DNA from: Blastocystis sp. Blastoise
Taxonomy: Eukaryota; Protista; Bigyra: Opalinata
Assembly: GCA_039096225.1 (NCBI GenBank)
Contig: JBBPEB010000021.1
Location: forward strand, 372,001-436,000
Reading direction: 5' to 3'
DNA length: 64,000 nt
In this document: positions 3,112 through 28,720 of the stretch, piece after piece
Position numbering within the stretch: position 1 is the stretch's first letter
How the letters are laid out: the number at the start of each line of letters is the position of its first letter
Made by a program: the position numbers and the translations under genes
The notes under the pieces: model-generated
Databases searched by the model: none
Seen by the model: the letters and a program-made list of their open reading frames with translations, nothing else
Told to the model about the DNA's origin: nothing

Positions 3112-3801
3112 ATTCTTCCGTTCTTCGAACTGCAGAAGGGGGTATGCAAACCCCGCATAGAGTCTGCGCGACGCGCGCAGCCATAAGCGGGGAAGTCATC
3201 CCCCCTTTTTGTTCTCGACGGAAGAATTAATAACATTTCTGAAGTAAAATAACCATGGGAGTGTAGGGTAGTGTGTGTGTGTATTTATTTTTTCCCATGT
3301 TTATTTATTTTTAATTTATTTGTGTTCCGATTCCAACGTGAAACGTAAAGTGATCAAGGAGAAACTCATAGTAATCATAAAAGAAATAAAATACACAGTC
3401 CAACCCTCCCCTTTACAGGGAATATTCATGGAAAATGACTCCATCGTTGGTAAAGTGAGTAAAATAATCACGGGAATACAGAAAGAAATACGAAAAGAAG
3501 CACAGAATGTGCTAAATAAACACACACCCCGACCCTCCCTTTAATAGAGAAAAGATGAAATGGATGGTTCTATCTAAAAAGAAATAATAAAAATAATCAC
3601 GGGAATATATAAAAATAAAAATGTATGTATAGTGATCAATAAATAATATAAAAAGTCATGATAATCATAAAAAATTTATATAAAAAGAGTAAAGTGATCA
3701 AGGTATGTATTTATAGTGGGTGAAAGAAAAGCTGGTGGTGGTGTGGTCTTGTAAAAAGATGTACCCACCACCACGATTATAACGAGAGACTTTTGGAAAC
3801 A
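3112..3801 (+). repeat. Left terminal inverted repeat of the PLV
   Basis: Near-perfect reverse complement of 28029-28720 with only scattered differences. Similarity decays by ~3820. Confidence 0.95.
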
Positions 3802-3830
3802 TGAGCGACCGATATGGAAAAATATAAAAT

Positions 3831-3878
3831 TTCTAGAACATTCTAGAACATTCTCGAAACTTCTAGAACATTCGAGAA
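3831..3878. promoter_or_regulatory. Heat-shock-element-like array (10 alternating nGAAn/nTTCn units)
   Basis: TTCtaGAAcaTTCtaGAAcaTTCtcGAAacTTCtaGAAcaTTCgaGAA, 45 bp upstream of the ORF at 3924. Confidence 0.7.
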
Positions 3879-3923
3879 TAATAAATTGTATTATTCGTTT
3901 TTTATATTTTTATACTATATATT

Positions 3924-4091
3924 ATGGATTCCCCAAAGCAATTTGCTCCAGATTATAAAGAAGGTACTTGGAAACCTTATGGAAATTTTGAAGTTGATGA
4001 ATTAAATGATAGTGATTCTGAAGTGGATACTATTAAAACTGAAAGTGAAGATGATTATGAAGATTATATAAAAAAATTTATTGATTTTTAA
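3924..4091 (+). CDS. Small acidic viral protein (55 aa), unknown function
   Basis: ATG...TAA reading MDSPKQFAPDYKEGTWKPYGNFEVDELNDSDSE...IDF. Not in the supplied ORF track. Preceded by an HSE array. Confidence 0.55.
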   Translation: MDSPKQFAPDYKEGTWKPYGNFEVDELNDSDSEVDTIKTESEDDYEDYIKKFIDF

Positions 4092-4165
4092 ATTAATTTT
4101 TATTAATAACAAAACAAATTGTTTAGTTTTTAAAAATAATAATAAATAAAACAAATTAAAATTAA

Positions 4166-5656
4166 CTAATGTTTTCTACGTTTATTTCTTAATTTTTTAT
4201 TTTTTGAAATACGTCTTTTTCTACGTAATCCATTACCTTCTTCGAGATCATAAAATACCTCACCATCATCTTCATCAAATGATTGAAATTCATCATCTTC
4301 TTTTTTATTTCTTTTATTATTATTTACAAGAGTGACATTTTCTACTGGATTGGGAATCGGGGCTACAGGTGTAATATTTGAAGTGAATTTATTCGTGACT
4401 GCTTGAGACATTGGAACAGTATCAGGTAAAGGAACAGTAGGATCATTTATAAGAGGAATTAAATTTGGAGGATTTGAATCTTCAATAGTAATATTATGAA
4501 TATTTTCTTGTGTTAGAGTATCAGGAGTAGATGAAGAAGTTGGTATAACATTATTATTTGCTTCTATTGGATTTTCTGTTTGTGGTATTTCCTCCTCTGG
4601 ATTCTTACCAAATAAAAATCCAGAAAAAGTATTGTATAAATTATTTACACCACTAACAACAGAGTTTGCAACTTTTTTAACACCATTAACAATTGGTGTT
4701 CCTACATTTGTTGCAGTATTAACAACTTTATTAACGAATGTTGGGTTTTCTGCATAGGGAATATAATTATTATGAAATGTTTTTGCTTGATCTTCTAAAG
4801 ATTTACTTTTGTTAAGTCTTTGTTGTTTCGTATCATTACCTGACATATGAGCAAATCTAAAATAGTTATCAGCTAATATTTTATTCTTTTTCTTAGCTTC
4901 ATTATCATTAGTTAATTTCCAATTATCATATAAATTATTTCTATCACTTACAAGTTTTCCTTTAATATCATTGAATCCTTCTTTTGGATCAACATTAATA
5001 TCTCTCCACCAATTCTTGAGATCTTTGAATTTATTTGCACCATAATCAACAGCATTACTTATTCCATGAGTGATGTTATTAATACCTCCAGTTAATTTAT
5101 CAGACACATTGTATACATCACTTACAGTGTGATAAATATTAGAAAATAAATTACCACCTCTAGAATATAAGTAACCATCACGATCTCTTTTAGTAAAATC
5201 AATAGCACTATCAATTGTACGAGGATTTAATAATCTAGAATATTTAGAATAATCAGACATATGATTTTGTTTCATATAAGGTAAGACATAATCATGAGCA
5301 TAAATAAGTTTTCTTGTAAAGTTCTTTGGAATTCTACCATCAGGTAATAGCCCAGATCCTTCATCTATTGGTTCACTTTCTTCTGATTCTTCTAATGAAC
5401 TTTGTATAACATCTTGTCTAGTTTCTGACAGATATGAATAGAATGGATTTGACGTTGCTCTATTAACCATATTACTTTCTATTCGCTTAACAGCAGCTAA
5501 AGAATTAGGAGCAATAGAATAATTAATTGGATGACGTTCTTCCCCATCAGGAATAGATCCTGGAACAATATAATTTCGATATTCATGACCAGTAGCACGA
5601 TGATTTACGCCTACTAATCCTTTATTTGAAACATTTAAACGAGCACTTTGTATCAT
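4166..5656 (-). CDS. PLV putative virion/core protein (496 aa) with GxG motifs and basic C-terminus
   Basis: Long intact ORF with EGSGLL, RGGNL and EGNGL motifs; ends RRKRRISKNKKLRNKRRKH. Confidence 0.7.
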   Translation of the reverse strand: MIQSARLNVSNKGLVGVNHRATGHEYRNYIVPGSIPDGEERHPINYSIAPNSLAAVKRIESNMVNRATSNPFYSYLSETRQDVIQSSLEESEESEPIDEGSGLLPDGRIPKNFTRKLIYAHDYVLPYMKQNHMSDYSKYSRLLNPRTIDSAIDFTKRDRDGYLYSRGGNLFSNIYHTVSDVYNVSDKLTGGINNITHGISNAVDYGANKFKDLKNWWRDINVDPKEGFNDIKGKLVSDRNNLYDNWKLTNDNEAKKKNKILADNYFRFAHMSGNDTKQQRLNKSKSLEDQAKTFHNNYIPYAENPTFVNKVVNTATNVGTPIVNGVKKVANSVVSGVNNLYNTFSGFLFGKNPEEEIPQTENPIEANNNVIPTSSSTPDTLTQENIHNITIEDSNPPNLIPLINDPTVPLPDTVPMSQAVTNKFTSNITPVAPIPNPVENVTLVNNNKRNKKEDDEFQSFDEDDGEVFYDLEEGNGLRRKRRISKNKKLRNKRRKH

Positions 5657-5780
5657 TTTAGTTTAATAAAATAATTATGATTTTTAAAACAAAACAAAAA
5701 TATATATATATATATTAACAAAATTATAATTTAAATGGCAAACATAATATTGCATAAATAAGTAAATATAATATAGTCTA

Positions 5781-6959
5781 TTAAGTTTCATCGTTTTGCT
5801 GATTTCTTAATCCACTATGTTCTTTATCAGGAAGTGCCTTATTTTCATTAAATAAACCTTCATTATATTTGATAATGAATTCATCAAGTGGCATTGTTCC
5901 GTACGTTTTATATATATAGCCTGACTTTTCAGCTGATCTAACATAAATTTTTTCATCTTTAAGAATGAATACCTGATCTTTAAACTCTGGATTATTACAT
6001 ATTACTTTTGAGTTCTTACCATTAACATAAATTGTGAATGGTATACCACTTTCAACAATATCATAATGCATACCTTGTTCATCCATCTTATCTTCAAATG
6101 CTTTGGCATCTTTTTTACGGTTACTCTCATAATTATCCATCTTAGCGTTTGTTTTATTAGTATCATTTTGACGATTCTTTTCATATTTATCCATTCTAGA
6201 TTGTGTATTGTTATAGTCTTGATGACGATTATTTTCATATTTATCCATCTTTGAATTTGTATTGTTAACATCTTTTTTACGATTATTTTCATATGTATCC
6301 ATTTTAGAGTTTGTAATATTATTATCTGATTGACGATTATTTTCATATGTATCCATCTTTGAGTTCAAATATTCGTTATCTTTATGTAGATTTTCATAAT
6401 TACTAGTCATATTTTGTTTCATTGAAGCTGCTTCAGCATGTATGTCATCATTATTGGTTTTAATTTGATATGAAATATTATTTAATTGATCATACATATC
6501 TTTTTGAGCATTTGAATAGAATTCATAATTCTCTTTATTCTGTTTATATGCTTCTGAATTCAATCCATTTAAGCCTTTTATTGAAGATAATAATGTTTCA
6601 TATTGATAATTATTAGGATTACTAGCATCATACCATATCTTACTGGTAGTAGGTACACCATAATTCGTTTGCCATTGAGATAACATAGATGAGTATCTTG
6701 CAGTATCTCCATTAGCTTTAGCTGAATTCATAGTAGCTATAAACATATCTTCAGGTGATTGACCATGATTTCTTAATGCTTGAACTGCCATTGAGCTATA
6801 CATAGATCCTTGTGCATTAGGATCATGTGCTAATGGTTGTACAGGTTGTTCATCTTGACAAATATATGAATTGGGTAACCATGGATCCCAAGATTGTTTT
6901 TTCTGATTTCTTGATAAAATATCATAGAGAGTTACACTATCTCCTAAATTACTTTGCAT
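5781..6959 (-). CDS. PLV protein (392 aa) with ~18-aa tandem repeats, probable coiled coil
   Basis: About five repeats of NSKMDxYENNRxxDxNxT. Confidence 0.75.
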   Translation of the reverse strand: MQSNLGDSVTLYDILSRNQKKQSWDPWLPNSYICQDEQPVQPLAHDPNAQGSMYSSMAVQALRNHGQSPEDMFIATMNSAKANGDTARYSSMLSQWQTNYGVPTTSKIWYDASNPNNYQYETLLSSIKGLNGLNSEAYKQNKENYEFYSNAQKDMYDQLNNISYQIKTNNDDIHAEAASMKQNMTSNYENLHKDNEYLNSKMDTYENNRQSDNNITNSKMDTYENNRKKDVNNTNSKMDKYENNRHQDYNNTQSRMDKYEKNRQNDTNKTNAKMDNYESNRKKDAKAFEDKMDEQGMHYDIVESGIPFTIYVNGKNSKVICNNPEFKDQVFILKDEKIYVRSAEKSGYIYKTYGTMPLDEFIIKYNEGLFNENKALPDKEHSGLRNQQNDET

Positions 6960-7035: not shown

Positions 7036-8073
7036 TTAATTTAAATGAAATTTTTTTAAGAAGAATTGAACAAGATTAATAATTAGATTAGTAGTAGTAT
7101 CAAAGGATGTAGAGTTGACAAGAGCACCACCACAACGTTCAGCATTCTCTTTTGTAACACCACTTCCACTAGGATTTTTAAAGTAGTTATCAGCAGTTTC
7201 TTTACGTTTCTTATCATCATCAGTAGTAATCATATTATAAGCGAAATCAATAGGGATACCAAGAGAAGGATAATAGTATTTTAATGCATTCACTACAATA
7301 GGAACAATCGTTTTAATAGTTTTAATAGCAGTATTAGCAATAATAGAATGCTTTTGTTTTGGATCCATAGGATATTCTTTATCGATAACGACATTAACAA
7401 TATCACGTACAGACACATGCTCATCATTTTTAGGTAATCGTTCTTTTATATCTTGTAATTTCTTTCTATTAGACTTTATATTATTAGAACGAATAGCCTT
7501 CTTAGCAATAATTCTTATTTGAGGAGTTACGAATTTACTTGTTTTCTTTTCTTTTTCTCGGTGACTCCCATGTTCTTTACGATGTTTCTGATGCCTTCTA
7601 TGTATACCTTGACCAAATATATCATCATAATTTTCATCTTCAAGATTTGCATTATTATAATCTTTATCATCATCAGCCATCATTTTTCTTGTTATTCTCT
7701 TTGGTTGATAAGTAGCATCATCATTATATAATTCATCATCTCTATTAGCATCTTCAATATGTTCTTCAAATTGTCTTTTCTTTTCTTCTTTTGCTTTTTC
7801 TTGACGTTTATTTTCTTTTCTTTTCTGATAATAATTATATCCAGCAATAGCTCCTAATGTACCTAATGCAGGAATAGCATAAGAAACACCATTTTTAACA
7901 CTATTCCACATAGCATCTTTAGCTTGTTGAGCAACAAGTTCTTCAAATCCAGTTCCTCCATATCTTACATAACGTTTATGATAAAGATCACGTCTATTTG
8001 ATTTTGGTGGTGATCCTCCAAATAATCGTGGATCACAATTTTGTTTTAAATATCTTTTTGTAATTGAACTCAT
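7036..8073 (-). CDS. PLV hypothetical basic/charged protein (345 aa), probable virion protein
   Basis: Intact ORF with hydrophobic stretch AIPALGTLGAIAGY and FGQGI, SGSGV, CGGAL motifs. Confidence 0.7.
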   Translation of the reverse strand: MSSITKRYLKQNCDPRLFGGSPPKSNRRDLYHKRYVRYGGTGFEELVAQQAKDAMWNSVKNGVSYAIPALGTLGAIAGYNYYQKRKENKRQEKAKEEKKRQFEEHIEDANRDDELYNDDATYQPKRITRKMMADDDKDYNNANLEDENYDDIFGQGIHRRHQKHRKEHGSHREKEKKTSKFVTPQIRIIAKKAIRSNNIKSNRKKLQDIKERLPKNDEHVSVRDIVNVVIDKEYPMDPKQKHSIIANTAIKTIKTIVPIVVNALKYYYPSLGIPIDFAYNMITTDDDKKRKETADNYFKNPSGSGVTKENAERCGGALVNSTSFDTTTNLIINLVQFFLKKFHLN

Positions 8074-8126
8074 AACAAAACAATAAAATAATTATGGTTT
8101 ATTTAACAAATTAAAATATAAAAAAA

Positions 8127-9164
8127 TTAATGAAAAGAAGGATAACCAGAATAATGTTTTTTATTTAAATAAGGATTGAAAATGCGTCGTTGACTATCTT
8201 GTATGATTTGATCTTGTATGATTTGTAAGATGGATTCTTTAGGTTTATCTTTTTCATCTCGTTCAATACCTTTCAATGAGACTTCTTCTTCAATAGGTAA
8301 AAACTTCTTCATTTTCTTTTCATATGTAGATACATGTTCATTAGAACGTTTAATACCACTACCTGATACTTCACCTTGTTCTTCTCGTTTCTCTTTTTCA
8401 CTATCTTCTTCTGTCCATTTCCGTTTCTTTACCATCTTATATACATTCTGTTTACTACCACAATCAGGATTAGTCCATATTGTTAAATCATCACTACCTT
8501 GTTTTAACATAAAGAATTGATGTGGATCATTCATTAATTCTTCATCTGTAAGAATTTCATTTAGATTTGATGGCATAATCTTTAATTTATCTGGTAAGAA
8601 TCCAGGATCACGTTTTAAGATTTGACTATTAATAAAGAAATGAGATACTTGACTTAATATAGATTGATTGGTAACATCTGTATGACTTTGAAGACATATA
8701 ATAGCATTCTGTTTATAATGACGACCTTTAGATAATATAGATACAATCAATTGTTTGGTTTGTCTAGATAATGGATAGATATCATCCAATACAATGAAAT
8801 TATGTTCTGGTAATTTATATGTATTGACTAATTCATCAACAGTTTTAATCTTTTTAAATTTATCATCTACAGAATCATACCATTTATAATCAATTCCAGC
8901 ATGTTCACAAATATCTTGAAAGGATGTATAACATTCATTCTTATTGGATGCATCAGGACAAATTACTGTGACTTGTTTATATTTATTTTTAAGATCCATA
9001 GAACATAAGAGGTTCACAGTTAAGAAAGATTTTCCTGAGAATGTTCTTGCAATAATCAATATGAATTTTGATTCATATGTTTTATGATGGGATTTTCCAT
9101 ATTTAAATTCTAAGACTCCACATCCTTTATGTGTTTCTTTTAATGGATTTATTTTATTCACCAT
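8127..9164 (-). CDS. A32-like (FtsK/HerA) genome-packaging ATPase
   Basis: Walker A ARTFSGKS, Walker B FIVLDD, A32-type motif LSKGRHYKQNAIICLQS. Confidence 0.9.
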   Translation of the reverse strand: MVNKINPLKETHKGCGVLEFKYGKSHHKTYESKFILIIARTFSGKSFLTVNLLCSMDLKNKYKQVTVICPDASNKNECYTSFQDICEHAGIDYKWYDSVDDKFKKIKTVDELVNTYKLPEHNFIVLDDIYPLSRQTKQLIVSILSKGRHYKQNAIICLQSHTDVTNQSILSQVSHFFINSQILKRDPGFLPDKLKIMPSNLNEILTDEELMNDPHQFFMLKQGSDDLTIWTNPDCGSKQNVYKMVKKRKWTEEDSEKEKREEQGEVSGSGIKRSNEHVSTYEKKMKKFLPIEEEVSLKGIERDEKDKPKESILQIIQDQIIQDSQRRIFNPYLNKKHYSGYPSFH

Positions 9165-9233: not shown

Positions 9234-9899
9234 TTAAGATGCAGTAAAGTATATATAAAGATTTGTATTTGATAAATCAATTGGATTATTTAATTGATCA
9301 TATACTTCCCATTGGATATCTGTATATTTACCATCAATACATGGAATAGATAAATCACTTAAAGCAAATGTATTATCAAATCCTTGTTTAGCATATAAAG
9401 GAATAGAAATCAAATCATTATCTTTATTAATAATATCACAATACACACGTAACATATAGATCTTATACCATGAAATATTATTAGATATATATTCATCACT
9501 GTAAGTAATTGGTGTATTAAAGTATTCATCATCTAATCCTAAATAATAAAAGAATTCTTTATTACTAAGACTTCTTCTGAATCCACTATACGTACCAAAT
9601 GTTTTTGTTTCTTTATCATAATAGAATGCACTCGTTTGTCCAGATACAGATATTGTCATCTTCTTACCAAGTTCAATTAATTTCTCAAAGAATTCTTCCA
9701 ATGAATAGTTACCAGCTGGAAATGTATGTGCTGTTGCATTATTTTCAGTTATTCTGAAAGATGGGATATTAATGATATCACTTGTATTCACTAATGTATT
9801 GATATGAGTAATATTTTTACCTACTAAATCCAAAGTATAATTGAATTGTTCATGACAGATTTGACTTGTAATTTTACTTAGATGAGATATTGATGTCAT
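9234..9899 (-). CDS. Putative minor capsid (penton) protein, single jelly-roll
   Basis: FPAGNYSLEEF, LRVYCDII and IQWEVYDQLNNPIDL resemble Polinton/PLV penton motifs. Lies between the ATPase and MCP genes. Confidence 0.6.
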   Translation of the reverse strand: MTSISHLSKITSQICHEQFNYTLDLVGKNITHINTLVNTSDIINIPSFRITENNATAHTFPAGNYSLEEFFEKLIELGKKMTISVSGQTSAFYYDKETKTFGTYSGFRRSLSNKEFFYYLGLDDEYFNTPITYSDEYISNNISWYKIYMLRVYCDIINKDNDLISIPLYAKQGFDNTFALSDLSIPCIDGKYTDIQWEVYDQLNNPIDLSNTNLYIYFTAS

Positions 9900-9997: not shown

Positions 9998-11221
9998 TTA
10001 ATTGGTAGCACCATCTCTAACAAATTTAACAAATATAAAATGAGCATATAAAGTATAAGGACCAGTAACAGTTCCACCAGTATATTCAGTTAATAATGAG
10101 ATATTAACTTCACAACCACTACGCGTATTGACATCAACAACACTTGAAATAGGGAATATATAAATAGGTTGTTCATACCACTTTTCACCATTTAAAGGAG
10201 ATTGAGGATGACTATTACATCTCCAAGTATTATAAAGCATAGCATTAGGAATAATTTGTGATGGATTCGTTGTTTTATACGTAGTAGGGAAATCCGTCTT
10301 TGGTAAGATATTTTGACCACCAATTTGGAATTGACATGATTTTAATAATTCAGTTTTAATAGGAATCATGCTCTTCTCTTGATTTGTGAAGTATAACATA
10401 CAATAATCAGGTACGAAAACAACACTTCTATTGGATAAGAATTGTTGTGGAGTTGGTGTACCTGATACTGATGCTTGTGAATAAACAGGTGTAGTGAATG
10501 CAGATATCTGACAATTATTAGGAATACATTTAATCAAAGCACGTGGATCATTACCAAAATTAATATCATAAATTTGTTGAAGATGAATATAAACACGATC
10601 AAATTTCAATGCAGTGATTACAGTGGTACCGGTAAATAGATTCTTTAAATAATTTGTAACGAATTGCATCTTCAAAGATTTTACTTTAATAGCACAATCA
10701 AATGTACCAAGACCAGTAATAAGAGATAAAGGAATAATAACTTGAGCTTTTTCTTTCATTTCCATTCCAGCAATACTACTCAACGTGTTATTATATAAGC
10801 ATTCTGTCATACTATACATAGATTTATCAATTTCATCTTTACTTAATTCTTTAATAGTAACAAATTTTCTTGCTTTACTGGATTCAATAGAAGATTCAGA
10901 ATAATTAATAAGAATATCTTGACCCGTAGGAGATACAAACGTAAGATCTGTAGTAATCTTATCAATAATACTATAGATATTAGAATGTTGTACAACTGAA
11001 GATGTTGAATTTTTGTCTCTAGTACCAGTAATATTGAAATTCAGTTCTAAGAATGAATTACTGAAATCAATATAAGGGCTATCCACTGAATTATATAAGA
11101 ATTCAAATGGATAAGGTTGATTTAATAAATCTTGACTTGTAGAAACTAGAATAGGAATTTGTACAGGTTTAATAGTTTGATTTGCCTTTGAAGGTAAGAA
11201 TTGTCTTGGGAATCCTTCCAT
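9998..11221 (-). CDS. Putative double jelly-roll major capsid protein 1 (407 aa)
   Basis: Beta-rich sequence of MCP size, N-terminal YIDFSNSFLELNFNI, IIPL motif, position in the morphogenetic cluster. Confidence 0.65.
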   Translation of the reverse strand: MEGFPRQFLPSKANQTIKPVQIPILVSTSQDLLNQPYPFEFLYNSVDSPYIDFSNSFLELNFNITGTRDKNSTSSVVQHSNIYSIIDKITTDLTFVSPTGQDILINYSESSIESSKARKFVTIKELSKDEIDKSMYSMTECLYNNTLSSIAGMEMKEKAQVIIPLSLITGLGTFDCAIKVKSLKMQFVTNYLKNLFTGTTVITALKFDRVYIHLQQIYDINFGNDPRALIKCIPNNCQISAFTTPVYSQASVSGTPTPQQFLSNRSVVFVPDYCMLYFTNQEKSMIPIKTELLKSCQFQIGGQNILPKTDFPTTYKTTNPSQIIPNAMLYNTWRCNSHPQSPLNGEKWYEQPIYIFPISSVVDVNTRSGCEVNISLLTEYTGGTVTGPYTLYAHFIFVKFVRDGATN

Positions 11222-15485: not shown

Positions 15486-15908
15486 ATGGAGCCTAAATCT
15501 GTATCTGAATCCTTACATTCTTTATCAAGTACAAGTTCAACAAGTTCAGATAGTTCAACAACAACCACATTATCCGAAGAAGAAATAGAAAAGAAAAATA
15601 CTTTATTAGAATTTATTATAAAAGCTATAAAATGTTTATTTGAGAAATCAACTGAATTCTTTCAATTAATTGTTAAAAATATAGATATTCATTGTAATTG
15701 TTGTAATCCACAAACAAAGAAAGTCTATTATAAGACAATGAAAATACAACAAACGATTATAGAAGAAGAAGTCAAACATATATCTGAAGTCTTGAATGAA
15801 TTAGAAGAAATTGATTCTAATCAAAATGAATCAATACAAGAATTAGCTGTTCAATTAATGAAATTAAATATAAGTGTTGATTCTATTGTTCAATCTCTTC
15901 ATTTATAA
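15486..15908 (+). CDS. PLV hypothetical protein (140 aa)
   Basis: ATG ORF with Ser/Thr-rich N-terminus, CNCC cluster and C-terminal heptads; followed by TGTTTTGTT. Confidence 0.65.
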   Translation: MEPKSVSESLHSLSSTSSTSSDSSTTTTLSEEEIEKKNTLLEFIIKAIKCLFEKSTEFFQLIVKNIDIHCNCCNPQTKKVYYKTMKIQQTIIEEEVKHISEVLNELEEIDSNQNESIQELAVQLMKLNISVDSIVQSLHL

Positions 15909-20800: not shown

Positions 20801-20819
20801 GAATTTGTGAATTTTCCAT
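17817..20819 (-). CDS. Primase-helicase (AEP + PriCT-2 + D5-like SF3 helicase), 1000 aa
   Basis: AEP motifs WFDLD and GIHIY; PriCT-2-like WYKLCCAAK...GLELFKNYS; Walker A YGSTGSNGKT; Walker B YYMNE; motif C FMTSN. Confidence 0.88.
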   Translation of the reverse strand: MENSQIHFVYTFGSFNHDNSKDNHSEIIIPNPLPFYKSLFTNYQNPKELLHYIDCTPCNTSTNYRRLWFDLDYHQISNDFSFLTDSFIHEFIEEICNHCIHYYNQEFISLVYTKKEVNKKTVHNEIHYSWGIHIYTNWFVNGDYLFFLYNSMILNTKLVDLCKMNNLDIKEFIDYNVIGKPRKNNGCMFLGCSKDNSPSTYKLYEEYTNKTWKKIEGEIDEHYYFKTLLNYKNEDDLISDIINPIIFYKLKQYSRYKRYYARLNNCSRTILCSIQDIKDIPMLISTDTILDTTASKEALLERYLLLIGSIEDMNYFESHNTWYKLCCAAKQICNTTRGLELFKNYSLRYGHDRSDDVIESTWNHIQVDPTHLSNNYILKILMDNKLFNKDDDNDFIFMSILECIQSFNLVDSQTLVMLFQLLEFNEIVSIILDKDNFILYTFDEYNILRRCKNNYDINFFETKITTFMKSIVEKFKLSRLYSKENEQHQKIVDKIMSASVTNEYHYKEWLNRYLKTYGKSYKEYLDTYMVHKERVIYTQLGYLYPKESTEEDPRQYYIQPYHKEDMVFEDLLIDTEFNVSWNINNEQKDIIQLFEQHIARYCEFDKKYESIMLRILTTAFYVNTQKTVSYILYGSTGSNGKTITTDLISRIVGSNQCIIVNPDNLEETSIAPKIVDMSNKTMYYMNELIEEDVTGRKKTFNPFSSKVFKEIAEKKEGASARKLFSNIFTKVHFTGTLFMTSNIQPTAVNAGPIERRVCFLPSCCRYFPPGNANLYEDYVDHNLPKRQQTVEKRLKPNHYEMDYTLSDKFYQNRSIIFSYLVSNYFYSSMQLDMHELDNEYHISECKKRFFDRSTEGYDLKSFVDNHITIDPYYLNVVTIEDIFNSYKKVNNNNQFTIKKDLDKFTNALFGCLSSKDTFNSIDIVNIHRKHTSNFYKGGNAIGICGLMIDNTYNNCVDTDLFCLSNCLSKKEEIVYSEDQYHNTSSTKRILIDNTLYAIPN

Positions 20820-20905: not shown

Positions 20906-21055
20906 GAAGCTTCTAGAACATTCTAGAACATTCAAGAACATTCTAGAACATTCTATAATAGTAAATATTACTTTATATTTTTAAATGTTCTAGAACCTTC
21001 AAGAACATTCTAGAACCTTCGAGAACCTTCTAGAACCTTCGAGAACCTTCTAGAA
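20906..21055. promoter_or_regulatory. Two long HSE-like arrays upstream of the primase-helicase
   Basis: 20906-20953 and 20988-21055 (14 units) keep TTCnnGAAnn periodicity with variable nn. Confidence 0.7.
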
Positions 21056-21165: not shown

Positions 21166-21789
21166 TTAAATTTCAATTGGTTCTTGACTATTAATATATG
21201 TACATGAATGAGGCCATCCATTTTTATCATATAAAATACCATCCCAGAAATACATTTGTTTTGAAGGATCTCTTTTAATCTTGTTAATACTCTTAGCATG
21301 AACAACTTCATAAGTATAAACTTTACCTTTTTCATCATAAAGAAATCCATCTTCCATATGGAATTTCATAATATCAAAATCATCATCTTTAGAATTCGAA
21401 TGTTCTTTAGAATCTTCAGAACATAAAATAGTAGTTCTATCACTTTCTAAAAGATCTTCAGTATTGATAATATCTTGAATATCTTGTTCTTCATTAAGTT
21501 GTTGAGTATAAATATCAGCAGCGAATTCTTCATAATCTTCAAGACCTTTAATAACCGCGTTTATACGTTTTAAAGCTGATCTATAGTTTTCGACTTCGAA
21601 AGAAGCAAGACGTTCTTTAGATTTTGCAATACCCAATAGATTCTTTTCTCTATTCAATTGAGACTGATGTAAATCAATATCACGAAGAACATTCTTATGA
21701 ACTTCAACAGCCTTCTTAGAATTCTTTAGAAGTTCCATACGAACAGTTTGAAGACATTTACGGGAATCAGCAGAAAGATTAAATTGCAT
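21166..21789 (-). CDS. PLV hypothetical coiled-coil protein
   Basis: First ATG at 21789 (MQFNLSADS...). Short HSE at 21901-21918 upstream. Confidence 0.65.
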   Translation of the reverse strand: MQFNLSADSRKCLQTVRMELLKNSKKAVEVHKNVLRDIDLHQSQLNREKNLLGIAKSKERLASFEVENYRSALKRINAVIKGLEDYEEFAADIYTQQLNEEQDIQDIINTEDLLESDRTTILCSEDSKEHSNSKDDDFDIMKFHMEDGFLYDEKGKVYTYEVVHAKSINKIKRDPSKQMYFWDGILYDKNGWPHSCTYINSQEPIEI

Positions 21790-22187
21790 TATAATCGCGA
21801 ATATCGTTACAGAGAGAAAATTTGTATTTATCAAAATGAAATAAATAATACATTTAAATGGAATATTAAATATTCTAGGAGACAGTCTAGAATCTCTATG
21901 GAATGTTCTAGAAGGTTCATTTGATTGGCTAATTTTGTCGACTTAGCATTTTTTATTTGTGTTTCAATGACGAGTATAGTTGGCATCTGTAATCTGATTG
22001 GATAAAAAAATTAGTAAAACACAATTAGACGATGACGACGATGTGTCATACGAAATAAGTTATTTTATTGGCTTATTTTCCAGCTGGAAGCAATAGGCTT
22101 TTGTTAGCAACTGAAATGAAGAACTGTACACTAAAAATAGTATATTTAATATATTGTATAAAAATACTTTTGAAGGTTTAAATAATC

Positions 22188-22715
22188 ATGGAAATTCCTG
22201 ATAGTCTTTCTGCCAGTTTATCCCCTTTCGGTCAAGCCATGATATCCCCCTTGTTGAATCAATTTGAAAATAGTGTTTCTGCAAATCCTATGGCTTTACC
22301 CAATGATAATGATTTCTGTTTTAATTCGCGTGACGAAATCATATTTGAAGATCCACCTCAAGAAATTCATCCAATCAATGATGTTTACGTATCTAAAAAT
22401 CCAGATAGATATCATTCGGTTAACAATCAACCAATACAATTTCAAGATCAAGTAAATACAAATCCTGATAAGCAAGCATTATTATTTACAAATGAGGAGT
22501 TAACAAATATATCCAGTCAATTCGAATCTTTATTTCAAACTATGGAAACGGCTGATAATATATTAAATAGTATTTATTGTACTGTTGATCATTTAAAAAC
22601 AAAGATTGAAAGTCAGAAACAAGATTTGAAACAGATTCATGATGATTCTAAAGAAATTGTTTCATTATTATCCGAATATTCTATTCCTTCTATGTCTGAA
22701 ATATTTGATCATTAA
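22188..22715 (+). CDS. PLV hypothetical acidic protein (175 aa) with C-terminal coiled coil
   Basis: ATG ORF followed by TGTTTTGTTT at ~22740. Confidence 0.65.
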   Translation: MEIPDSLSASLSPFGQAMISPLLNQFENSVSANPMALPNDNDFCFNSRDEIIFEDPPQEIHPINDVYVSKNPDRYHSVNNQPIQFQDQVNTNPDKQALLFTNEELTNISSQFESLFQTMETADNILNSIYCTVDHLKTKIESQKQDLKQIHDDSKEIVSLLSEYSIPSMSEIFDH

Positions 22716-22805: not shown

Positions 22806-22913
22806 AGAATTCTTGAATGGTCTAATGGATCTATTAAAGAAATATGTAACTACAGTATCATGGTTCGATTCCGTTAAAATGTTTCCATTAGATTATTCAA
22901 GTGTTCTTTTTTT
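22806..22913 (+). ncRNA. Putative Pol III-transcribed hairpin RNA (VA-RNA-like)
   Basis: A-box TGGTCTAATGG 22818-22828, B-box GGTTCGATTCC 22862-22872, 18-bp stem 22812-22829/22884-22901, T7 terminator 22907-22913. Confidence 0.6.
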
Positions 22914-22959
22914 CTAGAACCTTCTCGAACCTTCTAGAACATTCTCGAACCTTCTCGAA
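22912..22959. promoter_or_regulatory. HSE-like array (10 units) upstream of the putative SSB
   Basis: TTCtaGAAccTTCtcGAAccTTCtaGAAcaTTCtcGAAccTTCtcGAA. Confidence 0.7.
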
Positions 22960-23035: not shown

Positions 23036-23629
23036 ATGTCTTCAACTGAATTTAAGAAACCTACTATTCTTGATACTTCTAACTTTAATTTACAATGGGA
23101 TGACACCAAAGAAAATGCTGTTCTTTTAAATAATAATCATCGTGTATGTATTTCTACTGATGCTACACCATGTTTATTTGGTTATATTGTTACACGTGAT
23201 AAATGGACTTTAATAACGATTGAAGATGATAATCAAGTATTCTTAACTGCTTATAAAGAACTTTATCGTAAATTATGTGAATTATGTCCTGATGGTGATA
23301 TTGTTAATTTTGTACGTATGGATAATGGTAAATATAAGATTACAATTAAAGTACCTATTAATGCATCGAAGAATGTTACTATTGATATTACTGATAAAAG
23401 AGATAAGAAGATTAATATCGGTAAAGATCCTAAGTTAACTTACGAAGAAATACGTGAAAAGTATATTCCACCAAATACGTTATGTAAAGTATTATTTACA
23501 ATACATGGTATTCATCGTTATAATAACAAGTATTATATTGGTTTATATGCACGTTCTATTAAAGTATTCGATAAATCTACGAAGAATACTAACAGCAATG
23601 ATACTATTATTGATTTAACTAAATTATAA
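23036..23629 (+). CDS. Putative OB-fold single-stranded DNA-binding protein (197 aa)
   Basis: C-terminal LCKVLFTIHGIHRYNNKYYIGLYARSIKV resembles the beta-strand pattern of viral SSBs; size fits. Confidence 0.5.
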   Translation: MSSTEFKKPTILDTSNFNLQWDDTKENAVLLNNNHRVCISTDATPCLFGYIVTRDKWTLITIEDDNQVFLTAYKELYRKLCELCPDGDIVNFVRMDNGKYKITIKVPINASKNVTIDITDKRDKKINIGKDPKLTYEEIREKYIPPNTLCKVLFTIHGIHRYNNKYYIGLYARSIKVFDKSTKNTNSNDTIIDLTKL

Positions 23630-23704: not shown

Positions 23705-25432
23705 ATGCAAAGTTGTATCTTAGGAATGCCAAGTCCTGGTACTTTTGGTATGAATTTAATTTCAACTGGAAAAGAATATAGGCGATATAATACACAACCA
23801 TTACATAAAATGGATCAATATAATCCAATATTTCATGAAATAGGTCCAAATTCATCTATGCCTGTGTCTACTTTAGAAAGTAAAGAAATACATGATGGTA
23901 AAGAAGATGATTATGTAGATCGTTCTAAAACATTTGGTAAAGATGCTGTTCCACAAGGAAATGGTGCTTTAATTCGTGCTAGAGCAGCAGGTAAAGGTGT
24001 AATGAAAGCAGCTGGTCCAGAAGAAGATAAAATAGATGGTGAAGATCGTCAATATAAAGTATTAAATCCATGTAAACCAAGACGTAAATCTGGTAGAGGA
24101 ATTATTCCAAATAAATCAGAAATCAATAAATTAGAGAATAATCAAGGTTCTGGTATTGGTGATGCAATTAAAAATAAAGTAAAAGATATGTATCAACGAA
24201 ATGTTCTAGATATAAGAGATGCTATTGTAGATAAGAAAGCTAATAGAAAAGCTCGTGATGCATTAGCTATTTTAGCTCAATATGTTGGTGATGGTCATCA
24301 TGATCTTGATGATGAATTCAAAAGATTCTATGAACATAAAATAAAACGTGGTGGAAAGATTCCTATATCAGTTGCTTCAGCAATTATGAATGCAATTAAA
24401 AATAAGAAAATGATTAAGAATCCAAAATTAAGAAGAATGTTAAGACCTTCAATTATACCAAAATATATAGATTTAGATTCAGCTCAAAGTGGTGATGGTA
24501 TATTAAGAGTTAAAAGAGGTGGTGGGTTCTGGGACTCATTTACAACTATAGCACCATCTCTTTTAGATGTAGTTGATAAAGGTATGAATTCTTTTGCTAA
24601 AGGTAGAAAAGCTTATTATGATACACATTTGGCACAACAATCAAGTGAATTAAATGATATGGAATTTGAAATGGAAAAATTAAAACGTCAACAAGCATTA
24701 AATGAAATGAAAAAACAAATAGGTAATGGTATAGTAATGGGAACAATTAATGATGGTTACGATACAGTTGAACGACAATCAGAATTATTAGATCAAGAAG
24801 TACAACCATTAAGAGATTTGCACAGTATGAAACAACAACTTAGAAAGAATCTTCCTGTTCGTCAACCACCTCCTCCAGCGGCACCCATTCGACCACAACC
24901 AGAAATTGAACCTGAATTGAATGTTGATACATTTGATATACCTCAAAATGATACACCAAGACATCCACAAACTCAACAACCTCCTCAACCTTATAAACCT
25001 ATGTCTCGTGATGAACAAAGTTATTATTATAAGATTTATGGTTTCCCTCAAAATGATAAAGAGAAAGTCGATAGAAAATGGAAAGAAGATGAAAGGGATA
25101 AACGAATAGCTGCAAGAAGAGCTAAACGTAGAGGTTATGGTGGTCGTGTTAAATTAAGTAAATCAGAATTCTTAGAACGAATGAGAAGAGGAAAAGAAGC
25201 TAAAAAGAAAAGAGGTGGTGATTTACCTCCAATAGTATCAGCTTATACAGATTTTGTAATACCTGCACAAGTAGCTCAAAGGAAACGTAAAGTAGCTAAA
25301 AATGATTTAAAACAATTACAAACAATAAAACAAAAAATGGATAATAATGAAATATTAGATAGAGGTGAGCAAATGTTTTGGAAAGAAAAGAAGTATATGT
25401 TATCAAAAAACTCAGGGGAGGGGATCTGGTAA
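23705..25432 (+). CDS. Basic core (DNA-condensing) polyprotein-like protein with many GxG/GG sites (575 aa)
   Basis: Arg/Lys-rich with about 12 motifs such as QGNGA, AGKGV, SGRGI, QGSGI, SGDGI, RGGGF, IGNGI, RGGDL, SGEGI. Confidence 0.7.
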   Translation: MQSCILGMPSPGTFGMNLISTGKEYRRYNTQPLHKMDQYNPIFHEIGPNSSMPVSTLESKEIHDGKEDDYVDRSKTFGKDAVPQGNGALIRARAAGKGVMKAAGPEEDKIDGEDRQYKVLNPCKPRRKSGRGIIPNKSEINKLENNQGSGIGDAIKNKVKDMYQRNVLDIRDAIVDKKANRKARDALAILAQYVGDGHHDLDDEFKRFYEHKIKRGGKIPISVASAIMNAIKNKKMIKNPKLRRMLRPSIIPKYIDLDSAQSGDGILRVKRGGGFWDSFTTIAPSLLDVVDKGMNSFAKGRKAYYDTHLAQQSSELNDMEFEMEKLKRQQALNEMKKQIGNGIVMGTINDGYDTVERQSELLDQEVQPLRDLHSMKQQLRKNLPVRQPPPPAAPIRPQPEIEPELNVDTFDIPQNDTPRHPQTQQPPQPYKPMSRDEQSYYYKIYGFPQNDKEKVDRKWKEDERDKRIAARRAKRRGYGGRVKLSKSEFLERMRRGKEAKKKRGGDLPPIVSAYTDFVIPAQVAQRKRKVAKNDLKQLQTIKQKMDNNEILDRGEQMFWKEKKYMLSKNSGEGIW

Positions 25433-25524
25433 AGAGTAAAGATGAGAAACTTATTCAAAATTCGATGAATTGCGATAATCCTATTATATCTGATAAAACT
25501 CGTCATGTTACTCCTAGATCCCCT
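25405..25524 (+). promoter_or_regulatory. Predicted -1 programmed ribosomal frameshift signal
   Basis: In-frame slippery heptamer A_AAA_AAC (25405-25411), 7-nt spacer, then stem AGGGGATCTGG (25419-25429) pairing with CTAGATCCCCT (25514-25524). Confidence 0.7.
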
Positions 25525-25998
25525 GATAATTTTAAACAAACTCTATCTCAATATTGTAATATACCCAATTCTTTAATATCTCAATTATATAATTATGCTT
25601 ATTTAAATAAACCTACCTCTTCTGTTGCTTGTGATCGTGCTGAAAATGTTATGAAACAATTAAATAAAACGAATTCTCAATCTTATAATTATTATAATAG
25701 TTATGATGATTTTGAACAAAATATAGATCAAGATCAAACTAAATTTAATATGATCTTTCATGAAAGTCCTAGTGATCCTTATAATGGTCATTTTGAAGCT
25801 GTTATTTATAATGGTAATAAAAATATAGAACACTATTCATCATTAGGAAATGAACCTACTTTTTCAAAATCATTTATTCAAAATCATAATATTCAATATA
25901 ATCCTATTCAACACCAAAAAACTACAAGTAATGCAAATGGTTGCTTTTATTATTCTTTACTTTATTTACTTTCTAATGGAAATCTTATGCCTTGTTAA
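25411..25998 (+). CDS. Adenain/Ulp1-like maturation cysteine protease (in the -1 frame of the core ORF; first own ATG at 25465)
   Basis: His in NGHFEAV, IEHYSSLG (usual YDSxG position), Gln and Cys in QHQKTTSNANGCFYY. Confidence 0.72.
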   Translation, partial: LRGGDLVKSKDEKLIQNSMNCDNPIISDKTRHVTPRSPDNFKQTLSQYCNIPNSLISQLYNYAYLNKPTSSVACDRAENVMKQLNKTNSQSYNYYNSYDDFEQNIDQDQTKFNMIFHESPSDPYNGHFEAVIYNGNKNIEHYSSLGNEPTFSKSFIQNHNIQYNPIQHQKTTSNANGCFYYSLLYLLSNGNLMPC

Positions 25999-26342
25999 AA
26001 CATTCTAGAATATTCTAGAATCTTTAATTTATTATATTAATATTTTGTATAATTAATTTGTTTTGTTTAATATTTAATACTATTATGACAAAGAAACGAT
26101 TTGGCAATTACTACTTAGATCGTAGTGCAGAAACTTTAGAGAATGTAAATGAAATACTGTCAGTTATTGAAATTGTTCTTATTATTATATATATTTTACT
26201 TTACTTTTATATGTCCAAGAAACGTTCTAGAACATTCTAGAACATTCATTTTGAACTGGCTCTATTTGTAGAATCTTTAATTTATTATATTAGTGTTTTA
26301 TATAATTAATTTGTTTTGTTTAATCATTGGTTAATTTAAATA

Positions 26343-26717
26343 ATGAACAAGAAATATCTTAGTTATTCTTATTTTTGTCGTGTGATGAAGAATCTAAAAG
26401 AAGAAGGAATTAAATCTAAAAAGAATGAAATAGCGAATCTATTAGAACAATTTTTAAATAATAATAACAACAAAAATCTTAGTGATTTGCAATTGAGTTA
26501 TTGTAGAAATATGTTACTTTATATAGATGATCCTGTGATTCATCAACGTCTTGAAATGTTATTGGATAAACAATATATGAAGAATGAGAATCAATATCAA
26601 GATGATAAGAATCTTATTCAACCCAATAATATGTTTATGCCAACTATGAAAAGTAATCAACAACAAAATCAATATCAAAATAATAATAATAATCTATCTT
26701 TCTTACCTTTTAATTAA
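26343..26717 (+). CDS. PLV hypothetical protein (124 aa)
   Basis: ATG ORF preceded by an HSE array at 26225-26247; N/Q-rich tail. Confidence 0.55.
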   Translation: MNKKYLSYSYFCRVMKNLKEEGIKSKKNEIANLLEQFLNNNNNKNLSDLQLSYCRNMLLYIDDPVIHQRLEMLLDKQYMKNENQYQDDKNLIQPNNMFMPTMKSNQQQNQYQNNNNNLSFLPFN

Positions 26718-26790
26718 TTTTTATATCCTTTTATTACTAGTTGTTTAGTTATATTCAAAATTAAAGCAAAACAAACATGAAAACATAAAA

Positions 26791-27726
26791 TTATTCAATT
26801 AATTTTTTAAATAAATTATTATTTTCTAAAGATACATAAGAATTAATATGTGTATAATCATTATGACATAAAGCAGAAGCAGAATTTTCTATATCTTGGA
26901 ATGTATTGGTTGTAGTTGTAGCATATAATTTTCTTAATGCATTAATGGTTAATTTTGGATGGATTTGTTTTAAATGCTTATTCACAAACCAATCAAATGC
27001 TTTAGTAGTAAATCCAGTTCTTACAGAAGATTCAAATATAAATTTACGATTTGGATTTCTTTTTAAGAGTAATTCTAGATCTTCAATCAATTCTTTTGGT
27101 GCATCTAATTGAATTGTAGAGTATTTACCAGCAGTTTTATAATCATTTAATAGAATAGAACCAGTATGTTTCTCTTTATCATAAACAATATAATTCTTAT
27201 GAATAGCTGGATCAATAGTATCTTCTGGTGATAGAATGAATAATTGAGCATAATCAGCACGAGCAGGAGGAAGATAGGAGTAAAAATCTAATATTAATCG
27301 TAATGGATTATAATTTTCTAATTTATCGTGATATTCATGTAAATATGGAGTCGTAATACCATCTTTAATAAGATCTTGAATTAAAGTACGTTTCTTATTA
27401 TCCAGATATTTTTCATACATTGAATTGATAATCACATAAAATTCACACCATTTATTCAAAATACCTTCTTTATTTAATGAAGAAACATTACGTATAATAA
27501 ATAATATCAATTCACATAACGATTTCATTGGACTAATTTTGATTTTACGTTCATTTACCATATAATCCATGAATGAATAAGGATTCTTTAAGAATTCTGA
27601 GAACTTTTTAAATGGTAATGGGAAAATATATAAATTGAAATAATTAGTTAAACGTTTTTTCCAAATATCAGAATAATTTGAATTCTGTATAACCAAAAGA
27701 TACTTGTCATAATTTGTATTTTTCAT
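26791..27726 (-). CDS. Tyrosine recombinase 2 (~311 aa)
   Basis: R in PPARADY, K in DYKTAGKY, TINALRKLYAT, H...Y in LCHNDYTHINSY. First ATG at 27726. Confidence 0.88.
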   Translation of the reverse strand: MKNTNYDKYLLVIQNSNYSDIWKKRLTNYFNLYIFPLPFKKFSEFLKNPYSFMDYMVNERKIKISPMKSLCELILFIIRNVSSLNKEGILNKWCEFYVIINSMYEKYLDNKKRTLIQDLIKDGITTPYLHEYHDKLENYNPLRLILDFYSYLPPARADYAQLFILSPEDTIDPAIHKNYIVYDKEKHTGSILLNDYKTAGKYSTIQLDAPKELIEDLELLLKRNPNRKFIFESSVRTGFTTKAFDWFVNKHLKQIHPKLTINALRKLYATTTTNTFQDIENSASALCHNDYTHINSYVSLENNNLFKKLIE

Positions 27727-27814
27727 TGATTTTCTCAAGTAGAATCTCTAAAACTTCTATTTTCAAAAGAATAATACATAAGAAAATCAAAATAAAATAT
27801 CTAAGATTCTCATG

Positions 27815-27862
27815 TTCTAGAATGTTCTAGAAGTTTCGAGAATGTTCTAGAATATTCTAGAA
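27815..27862. promoter_or_regulatory. HSE-like array (10 units) upstream of tyrosine recombinase 2
   Basis: TTCtaGAAtgTTCtaGAAgtTTCgaGAAtgTTCtaGAAtaTTCtaGAA. Confidence 0.7.
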
Positions 27863-28028
27863 AATTGATATACATCCCGCCACCTAAAACCACTGGAACA
27901 CAATTAGTTTCTCTAGTTTCCCCAATATAATTGTGTTTTTGTGTTCCAAAATCCCTCATTTTTACAATTTTAAGCAATTTGATTGGACAATTCACGATGA
28001 CGCATCCTATTTCCATAACGGTTACCCT

Positions 28029-28720
28029 TGTTTCCAAAAGTCTCTCGTTATAGTCGTGGTGGTGGGTACATCTTTTTACAAGACCACACCACCACCAGCT
28101 TTTCTTTCACCCACTATAAATACATACCTTGATCACTTTACTCTTTTTATATAAATTTTTTTATGATTATCATGACTTTTTATATTATTTATTGATCACT
28201 ATACATACATTTTTATTTTTATATATTCCCGTGATTATTTCTATTATTTCTTTTTAGATAGAACCATCCATTTCATCTTTTCTCTATATAAAGGGAGGGT
28301 CGGGGTGTGTGTTTATTTAGCACATTCTGTGCTTCTTTTCGTATTTCTTTCTGTATTCCCGTGATTATCTTACTCACTTTACCAACGATGGAGCCATTTC
28401 CCATGAATATTCCCTGTAAAGGGGAGGGTTGGACTGTGTATTTTATTTCTTTTATGATTACTATGAGTTTCTCCTTGATCACTTTACGTTTCACGTTGGA
28501 ATCGGAACACAAATAAATTAAAAATAAATAAACATGGGAAAAAATAAATACACACACACACTACCCTACACTCCCATGGTTATTTTACTTCAGAAATGTT
28601 ATTAATTCTTCCGTCGAGAACAAAAAGGGGGGATGTCTTCCCCGCTTATGGCTGCGCGCGTCGCGCAGACTCTATGCGGGGTTTGCATACCCCCTTCTGC
28701 AGTTCGAAGAACGGAAGAAT
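28029..28720 (-). repeat. Right terminal inverted repeat of the PLV
   Basis: Reverse complement of 3112-3801. Confidence 0.95.

Follow-up and report, generated by a model that had tools for sequence, protein, structure and literature searches.

Which signal wakes an integrated virus, and whether that virus then needs a giant virus, is not known for most Polinton-like viruses (PLVs). The sequence analysed here is a 64,000-nt stretch of the Blastocystis sp. Blastoise genome (positions 372,001 to 436,000 of contig JBBPEB010000021.1; hereafter the window). The element at window positions 3112-28720 is almost certainly an integrated PLV, as judged by its terminal inverted repeats (TIRs), its capsid, penton, ATPase, primase-helicase and two recombinase-like genes, and its many recent copies. 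Taken as a whole, the evidence makes it reasonably probable that this is an intact temperate PLV, likely of Blastocystis, likely transcribed by the host, and that its likely switch is the heat-shock response of the host, not a helper giant virus. The provirus thus predicts a specific trigger and names the genes that would respond first; because the host protist is culturable and the predicted trigger is specific, the question is directly testable.

Ends and gene content of the provirus

The provirus spans 25,609 bp (25.6 kb), and its features are listed in Table 1. The two TIRs were 98.0% identical across 715 columns; the first-pass annotation had described them as near-identical and ~690 bp long, and they proved near-identical but slightly longer, at ~710 bp. 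Both the size and the TIRs are those of broad-sense PLVs (Polisuviricotina; 15-30 kb with TIRs). At either end lies a 124-nt hairpin (z -6 to -9), and none of 200 shuffles was as stable. The provirus split the end of a host hAT transposon, the remainder of which picks up at 28753. No exact target site duplication (TSD) was found at the provirus ends. When the empty site was reconstructed, a 6-bp overlap gave 30 of 45 matches vs 28-29 for the alternatives; other joins scored higher in the grid, and no model was singled out. Joining the TIR ends necessarily gives a palindrome, which was left out of the evidence.

Table 1. Features of the provirus and its immediate flank (window coordinates)
Feature	Position	Strand	Remarks
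Host hAT transposon terminus, TAGAGCGG end	3082..3107	+	begins in the same way as five further hAT ends of the window
Left TIR	3108..3820	+	98% to right TIR; outermost 124 nt form an imperfect palindrome (hairpin), z -6.2 and -7.9
10-unit array	3831..3878	.	45 nt before sORF55
Acidic 55-aa ORF (sORF55)	3924..4091	+	
496-aa protein, basic tail; likely virion core or membrane-associated	4166..5656	-	2 G-x-G-[ILV] sites; PHROG tape-measure-like match E 4e-8
392-aa protein, putative coiled-coil or fibre-like	5781..6959	-	18-aa repeats
345-aa basic protein, likely core protein	7036..8073	-	2 G-x-G-[ILV] sites
Packaging ATPase, likely A32/FtsK type	8127..9164	-	PHROG packaging family E 1.5e-10; Walker A residue 39, Walker B residue 124
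Penton, single jelly roll with hypervariable inserted domain	9234..9899	-	predicted fold
Major capsid protein 1 (MCP1), double jelly roll	9998..11221	-	predicted fold
Major capsid protein 2 (MCP2)	11397..12890	-	MCP1 paralog: 29% identity, E 9e-43
812-aa protein, likely a long second penton or a spike	12978..15416	+	weak match to short penton E 6e-4; repeated motif in common
140-aa ORF	15486..15908	+	
598-aa tyrosine-recombinase-like protein	15976..17772	+	within structural block; no upstream array
1000-aa primase-SF3 (D5-like) helicase fusion	17817..20819	-	PHROG DNA primase E 2.4e-9; TIGR01613 E 1.4e-8; AEP motifs by eye
Two arrays, 10 and 14 units	20906..21055	.	86 and 168 nt before primase-helicase ATG
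207-aa ORF	21166..21789	-	4-unit array at 21901-21918 upstream
175-aa coiled-coil ORF	22188..22715	+	
10-unit array	22912..22959	.	76 nt before ORF197
197-aa ORF (ORF197), putatively ssDNA-binding-like (by eye)	23036..23629	+	no significant database match
575-aa basic protein, likely protease-processed core protein	23705..25432	+	6 G-x-G-[ILV] sites; 0/2000 shuffles reach 6
Possible cysteine protease	25465..25998	+	His and Cys motifs by eye; Ser where acid residue expected
51-aa ORF with hydrophobic segment	26085..26240	+	4-unit array at 26003-26020 upstream
124-aa ORF	26343..26717	+	5-unit array at 26225-26247 upstream
311-aa putative tyrosine recombinase adjoining right TIR	26791..27726	-	Pfam E 0.084
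10-unit array	27815..27862	.	88 nt before 311-aa recombinase
Right TIR	28010..28724	-	final 124 nt form terminal hairpin, z -7.0 and -9.0

Between the TIRs we counted 20 uninterrupted ORFs: 18 ATG ORFs of at least 120 aa, in line with the roughly 18 of the first-pass annotation, and two small ones of 55 aa (3924) and 51 aa (26085). ORFs of 114 and 100 aa nested inside larger genes were dropped from this count. The provirus is ~83% coding, with 32-398 bp between the 20 ORFs. An Rfam scan of window positions 1-32000 returned tRNA-Val only.

The morphogenetic module proposed at first pass was recovered, with a double jelly-roll (DJR) capsid and a penton, both expected of broad-sense PLVs, recognised by predicted fold and an ATPase matching a packaging family. 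The predicted MCP1 fold matched the capsids of Faustovirus, PBCV-1, mavirus and Sputnik (Z 16.9-17.5, rmsd 4.2-5.5, 318-345 aligned residues), the matches to Sputnik and mavirus being tied with those to NCLDV capsids; a Pfam search gave no capsid match. Of the two jelly-roll capsid paralogs claimed earlier, MCP1 was thus supported by its predicted fold, and MCP2 stood as its paralog by sequence. The structure check proposed for 9234-9899 indicated a penton-type single jelly roll (structural matches Z 7.7-9.0; MELD-virus penton at E 5e-10). The best fold match of this short penton was a 996-aa penton, and the 812-aa protein is likely a second, long one.

The adenain protease of the first-pass annotation fared less well; a cysteine protease is frequent in broad-sense PLVs but does not occur in all of them. 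His and Cys motifs, presumably those of such a protease, are present, but Ser replaces the acidic residue expected in the triad, and searches of Pfam, PHROG, other profiles and PDB sequences gave no match. Candidate cleavage sites of the form G-x-G-[ILV], a pattern picked post hoc, occurred 14 times vs 2.1 expected, none of them in array-preceded genes. The site in the 598-aa recombinase has a P of 0.11 alone, and its position is not fixed among relatives. PDB-sequence searches with a profile or a single protein yielded nothing significant for MCP1, the 598-aa recombinase, ORF197, the protease or the primase-helicase.

The absence of polymerase B, claimed earlier, was confirmed: no pPolB motif was found in a six-frame scan of the provirus, no gap was big enough to hold the gene, and Pfam gave no match to pPolB or rve. 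Membership in the Maverick/Polinton group (Polintoviricetes) was rejected on these grounds. A primase-helicase and a tyrosine recombinase (YR) appear to take the place of pPolB and integrase, as had been suggested; the replicase and integrase expected of broad-sense PLVs were thus identified by profiles for the former and by clusters and motifs for the latter. Both putative recombinases contain R-K-(H/N/D)xxR-H-Y, which we take to be the tyrosine-recombinase motif set. Both also scored 0.97-0.98 against Preplasmiviricota clusters, one of which carries PF00589 on 16% of its members (a single source of evidence). These results are consistent with two tyrosine recombinases, the number first proposed, while Pfam gave no match for the 598-aa protein.

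Heat-shock-type arrays and proposed transcription of the provirus

Heat-shock promoters are marked by alternating nGAAn units, at least three of them close to the start of the gene, and the provirus has such sequences. A scan of the window identified eight perfect nTTCn/nGAAn arrays of 4-14 units each, all within the provirus; no array of at least 4 units was present in the window's 38 kb of host DNA. None of 300 simulations reached 5 units, and there were 23 matches vs 0.01 expected. In every case the array is located 45-168 nt before an ATG. Seven of the 20 ORFs, including the primase-helicase and the 311-aa recombinase, are array-preceded, and no array was found upstream of the capsid, penton, ATPase or protease genes.

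A second motif marks the 3' ends of genes. TGTTTTGT follows 15 of the 20 provirus stops, with all 15 provirus copies on the sense strand and 24-84 nt past the stop (shuffle mean 0.2, maximum 3 in 2000 shuffles); it also follows three of the five host-side stops examined.

We propose that stress-activated heat-shock factor (HSF) binds the nGAAn arrays and switches on the seven array-preceded genes, and that TGTTTTGT serves host 3'-processing; we regard this step as fairly probable. It is an even call whether the 311-aa recombinase would then excise or resolve the genome at the TIR ends and whether the primase-helicase, alone or together with a host polymerase, would start copying at the terminal hairpins. 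The array-less late genes would supply a capsid of two MCPs and two pentons, and the protease would trim the basic core proteins at G-x-G sites. More speculatively, and with rather low confidence, a particle-borne 598-aa recombinase might integrate the incoming genome via a 6-bp AT-rich overlap, leaving no true target duplication.

Alternatively, the same provirus could be a hyperparasite, in which late genes and particles need a co-infecting large DNA virus and the arrays merely prime early genes or sense infection stress. According to the introduction of a recent study (Barth et al. 2026, 10.64898/2026.10.13.758929), characterised PLVs are often giant-virus dependent and several do not replicate unless giant viruses are present, which counts against a helper-free reading. 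Polymerase B was not found in the provirus either, and searches of its proteins with Pfam, PHROG and further profiles revealed no recognisable late transcription factor, which leaves late-gene activation without explanation. However, the late genes bear the host-type 3' motif, which points to host nuclear processing, and by eye they have no common upstream motif beyond AT-richness. The egovirus preprint, in its available part, finds no gene flux between that group of gut large viruses and Blastocystis (10.1101/2024.03.23.586382). We therefore consider a hyperparasite unlikely.

Slightly less probable still is an autonomous provirus whose arrays bind a protein of its own, as sites of an early regulator, origin iterons or accessory sites of a recombinase, and whose trigger is not stress. 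Several array-preceded ORFs have no assigned function. Elsewhere the array pattern turned up at 4 loci of viral contigs and at 20 of metagenome contigs, with no tblastn relationship to the provirus at any of them, and the period-10 TTC/GAA pattern also occurs in phage and bacterial-looking contigs, so the pattern by itself is no proof of HSF control. Against this alternative, the GAA/TTC triplets alternate at exactly 5 bp although the bases between them vary, as in the HSF consensus, and the arrays lie at promoter distance before seven separate ORFs rather than at one origin or in the TIRs. Induction through host HSF remains our preferred reading.

Sibling copies and relatives

Near-identical proteins labelled Blastocystis sp. 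Blastoise, compared at the protein level, were encoded in the same gene order at no fewer than 19 other loci, on 13 contigs of 0.5-2.2 Mb, and the enzymes were ~99% identical among copies. The search for further copies suggested at first pass was thus rewarded, the provirus appears recent as then supposed, and the anaerobic protist named as host is likely Blastocystis. GARP/FYMINK ratios offered no useful clue to the host. Among the copies, 28 of the 35 variable MCP1 positions fall within four short blocks, and recombinant alleles are present.

These copies also bear on a very improbable explanation, in which the provirus is a transposon-like relic that is not infectious, or else arose during assembly, through collapse or chimerism of copies or through the joining of a co-cultured virus to host DNA: the junctions are those of the assembly, tortoise strains are xenic cultures according to the available part of PMC10690189, some sibling proteins are short (125, 255 and 534 aa) and repeat polishing could create mosaic alleles, but the two flanks are parts of one hAT transposon end, the siblings are spread over those 13 large contigs, ORF lengths are the same or nearly the same as in the siblings for all ORFs compared, and the variation is focused in capsid loops that also vary in distant relatives (0.53 vs 0.88 conservation). 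We rejected the idea that the element is a prophage from a contaminating bacterium.

Relatives at 43-63% identity were found in further assemblies. The capsid family is isolated: the MCP1 profile gave 11 matches among 1.84 billion proteins, recovering its own family and one weak match, and none of the 11 was named to the TsV, PgVV or Dino MCP groups (Aquintoviricetes). No related loci were found in IMG/VR, JGI metagenomes, GTDB or INPHARED. Within these searches, the suggestion of an undescribed lineage held. A midpoint-rooted MCP tree of 19 rows required 3 changes for the Blastoise label; its branches are long and its forks open, so we claim no order of events.

The provirus also draws attention to a capsid family that had been missed, although its relatives are numerous among public assemblies, within or close to the commonest genus of gut eukaryotes. 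An earlier capsid survey (Bellas et al. 2023, PMC10120064), in the available part of its Table S1, records 285 MCPs for Proteromonas and no count for any of the 10 Blastocystis assemblies. As a tentative extension, the provirus might represent a class-level, unclassified and widespread Blastocystis virus lineage and a true eukaryotic analogue of a prophage: helper-independent and HSF-induced, it would use one recombinase for excision and another, carried in the particle, for integration, and its capsid surface loops would be shuffled among the many resident copies.

Comparison with known systems

Other PLVs have been reported to carry two or three capsid genes, a pair of pentons or palindromic termini. 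The best fold matches of MCP1 (TM 0.68, E 5e-17) and of the penton (996-aa and 236-aa proteins) were proteins of 'MELD virus sp.' (BFVD A0A8S5L5M3, A0A8S5L5B1, A0A8S5L5C7), suggesting that a long-plus-short penton layout is common to both; these proteins share only 14-17% identity with ours and may come from the Blastocystis hominis MELD virus that Starrett et al. 2021 (PMC8502044) described. The latter comes from the same host genus but has an adintovirus-like PolB and integrase. The provirus has neither, and membership in that group was rejected.

Trimcap PLVs (10.64898/2026.06.19.733378) also have several MCP genes, and some have two pentons. Their three MCPs are highly divergent, whereas two that are 29% identical were found here by sequence and profile searches, with folds predicted for MCP1 and the short penton, and assignment to this group was rejected. 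Virophaviricetes are recognised by profiles for MCP, ATPase and protease that are specific to virophages (PMC9952930).

Halocafeteria virophages and PLV subtype 4 (10.64898/2026.07.28.741278) resemble the provirus in their TIR-end palindromes, which have been proposed to prime replication, in their non-pPolB replicases and in their insertion among host transposons. They differ in having rve integrases, TSDs and, in the example given, 52-nt palindromes, in place of the recombinases, the lack of an exact TSD and the 124-nt imperfect hairpin found here.

The heat-activated retrotransposon ONSEN, as described in the available part of PMC9032817, is likewise a mobile element wired to a host heat-shock factor (HSFA2-dependent). 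For ONSEN, an LTR retroelement, this wiring has been proved by experiment, whereas for the provirus, a DNA virus, it is predicted from the sequence and would run through several separate promoters with arrays.

Endogenous protist PLVs with a primase-helicase and a YR (Bellas et al. 2023, PMC10120064; Barth et al. 2026, 10.64898/2026.10.13.758929) share with the provirus a length of 15-30 kb, TIRs, a DJR capsid, a penton, an ATPase, the primase-helicase with YR and a multi-copy state. Unlike them, the provirus combines an isolated capsid family, two putative recombinases and heat-shock-type arrays.

Structure and gene content of the element

The first-pass annotation had described a Polinton-like provirus, and the element proved to be real and positioned as claimed, with inverted repeats at both ends and ORFs between them. 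The terminal inverted repeats (TIRs) were 98.0% identical across 715 columns, and the outermost 124 nt of each formed a hairpin (z −6.2 to −9.0). The element contained 18 ATG ORFs of at least 120 aa and two small ones (55 and 51 aa), with inter-ORF gaps of 32–398 bp. Its GC content was 26.8%, and that of the flanks and the TIR was 23.5% and 25.6%, and 35.7%, respectively. The left flank was a hAT transposon terminus and the 3' part of the same hAT restarted at 28753, indicating that the two flanks belong together. No exact target duplication was found at the element borders. The core borders, ATTGAT (left) and ATTAAT (right), are compatible with a recombinase overlap; an empty-site test did not single out this model. 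A tRNA-Val gene (~560 bp from the left junction) and three 73-bp direct repeats lay nearby. To the right, one hAT-like copy showed an exact 8-bp target duplication and split another transposase ORF. Further along were two divergently arranged genes, ~86% identical over 2.5 kb and unequal in intron number.

Coordinates of the features (window positions unless a contig is named)
Feature	Position	Remark
Element	3112-28720
TIRs	3108-3820; 28010-28724
73-bp repeats and tRNA-Val gene	1196-1417; 2475-2549
Penton	9234-9899	221 aa
Capsid protein MCP1	9998-11221
Capsid protein MCP2	11397-12890	497 aa
812-aa ORF	12978-15416	probably a second, long penton
598-aa recombinase	15976-17772	candidate
Protease	25465-25998	putative; assigned by motifs
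311-aa recombinase	26791-27726	candidate; TIR-adjacent
hAT-like transposon nest	28753-35751
hAT-like copy	32756-35751
Transposase ORF	35631-36637	presumably Harbinger-like
Two host genes	39790-50845	presumably pyruvate:ferredoxin oxidoreductase-like
Host-side TGTTTTGT	1030; 39624; 50963	about 110-165 nt after a stop
Period-10 TTC/GAA arrays	L002:4009-4046; L001:10001-10078	phage or bacterial-looking contigs
Retroelement	L020:1840-2514	presumably copia-like

MCP1 was modelled (pLDDT 74.7) from an alignment of 37 of its 87 homologs; P0001, the first row, and the protein encoded in the window differed at a single residue. The model matched known capsids as a double jelly roll, bearing out the capsid assignment. 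Foldseek placed Sputnik at the top (E 1.6e-11); the Faustovirus, PBCV-1, mavirus and Sputnik capsids were tied (Z 16.9–17.5). Against BFVD, the clear top match was a protein labelled 'MELD virus sp.' (TM 0.68, E 5e-17, 14% identity). As the annotation had proposed, MCP2 is by sequence a paralog of MCP1 (29%, E 9e-43). The penton, modelled from the window's sequence and 30 of 63 homologs, was predicted to be a single jelly roll. It was most similar to two MELD-virus proteins, one a penton of 996 aa (E 5e-10) and the other 236 aa long; PDB matches were middling (Z 7.7–9.0). The 812-aa ORF shared a repeated motif with this penton.

PHROG and NCBIfam matches backed the ATPase and the primase-helicase. 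Both putative tyrosine recombinases matched Preplasmiviricota clusters at 0.97–0.98, one of them a cluster with PF00589 in 16% of its members, which agrees with the two recombinases first suggested. In the 598-aa protein, the motifs of catalytic type did not vary across 17 aligned sequences (the window's and 16 of 120 listed homologs; 163 were found), and the two recombinases showed no significant sequence similarity to each other. No polymerase B was detected, in line with the annotation: six-frame translation of the element gave no PolB motif.

Putative expression signals and life cycle

Eight arrays of alternating TTC/GAA units (4–14 units, 5-bp spacing) were found in the element, the pattern of a heat-shock element. 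It gave 23 matches against 0.01 expected, and the window's host DNA contained no array of at least 4 units. Each array lay 45–168 nt upstream of an ATG. They preceded 7 of the 20 ORFs (primase-helicase, 311-aa recombinase, ORF197, ORF207, ORF124 and both small ORFs); none preceded the capsid, penton, ATPase or protease genes or the 598-aa recombinase.

The genes, copies and motifs were observed; each functional step is one that we infer. We consider it fairly probable that the element is a temperate virus, transcribed by the host and induced by stress through HSF. Stress would act through HSF to activate the early genes; the TIR-adjacent recombinase and the primase-helicase would free and copy the genome, starting from its hairpin ends; the late genes would build the particle; and the 598-aa recombinase would possibly integrate the incoming genome. 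Dependence of the element on a helper is unlikely. Similar arrays occurred in contigs that look like phage or bacterial DNA, in which HSF cannot be what reads them, so the pattern should not be over-read as an HSF site. They favour reading of the arrays by a viral protein, which we nevertheless hold to be quite doubtful. That the element is a relic or artefact is very improbable. Separately, several nTTCn/nGAAn arrays surrounded the gag-like ORF start of a retroelement.

TGTTTTGT had 15 copies in the element, each of them 24–84 nt past a stop and in sense orientation, and it followed three of five host-side stops examined. The motif is similar to the downstream gene element of Blastocystis (core TGTTGTT), for which PMC10690189 reports no enrichment in tortoise strains. 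Possibly it is a 3'-end signal of the host lineage that has been overlooked. G-x-G-[ILV], a pattern picked after the fact, had 14 sites against 2.1 expected, confined to array-less genes, and is a candidate maturation site.

Sibling copies and relatives

Near-identical proteins bear the name Blastocystis sp. Blastoise, a strain that according to PMC10690189 was isolated from a tortoise, grown in xenic culture and given a Nanopore assembly. When accession numbers were grouped, 17 groups had at least four element genes and two were double, giving at least 19 other loci that share the element's gene order and are spread over 13 contigs. In full-length copies the recombinases, primase-helicase and ATPase were ~99% identical; identity was 93–99.8% for MCP1, 89–99.6% for MCP2, 90–93% for the 812-aa protein and 76–100% for the penton. 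MCP1 and MCP2 each had two alleles, plus clear recombinants. Four blocks totalling 38 residues held 28 of the 35 variable MCP1 positions; 25 of 35 were in coil, against 181 of 407 overall (p 0.001), and their conservation in 33 relatives was low (0.53 versus 0.88). This pattern is consistent with selection on the particle surface; repeat polishing could contribute. P0077, P0079 and P0080 represented at least three further divergent capsid lineages (50–54% identity, 7 accession numbers) under the same organism name.

Among the 87 MCP1 matches, 83 showed 55–63% identity, and almost all of these came from assemblies in ENA or Logan. Contigs of 23,956, 23,715 and 23,710 bp recurred in the MCP1, MCP2-like and recombinase clusters, suggesting that the two-capsid layout is likely kept in relatives; contigs of this size would arise from a free genome as well as from a multi-copy insert split at its TIRs. 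An MCP1 profile run against 1.84 billion proteins found 11: the MCP1 family itself, MCP2-like proteins, fragments and one weak match. In two alignments of relatives (A1, A3), capsid and penton loops comprised a few alternative blocks in many combinations, which may reflect genuine recombination or else assembly chimeras among multi-copy elements.

Comparison with known elements

The element is a Polinton-like virus (PLV) in the broad sense; Maverick and Trimcap identities were rejected. The literature considered included PMC8502044 (Blastocystis MELD virus), 10.64898/2026.10.13.758929, 10.1101/2024.03.23.586382, 10.1101/2022.05.25.493380, 10.64898/2026.06.19.733378 (Trimcaps), PMC11296320, 10.64898/2026.07.28.741278 (Halocafeteria virophages), PMC9032817 (ONSEN) and PMC9952930 (virophage profiles). 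The text consulted of the strain paper (PMC10690189) uses 'virus' and 'viral' once each, neither for such elements, and the PMC10120064 supplement, as far as consulted, lacks an MCP count in 10 of 10 Blastocystis rows and gives 285 for Proteromonas. No description of the element, or of heat-shock arrays in any PLV, was found in the Blastocystis, Polinton/PLV, MELD-virus and heat-shock literature searched, a scope outside which most subscription journals and preprint supplements fall. In the PLV literature consulted, protists commonly carry endogenous PLVs, and there are precedents for more than one capsid, for a pair of pentons and for palindromic termini. What sets this element apart is its isolated capsid family, whose many relatives had gone unrecognised, the presence of two recombinases in separate expression blocks, and a clear-cut, testable division of promoters into early and late.
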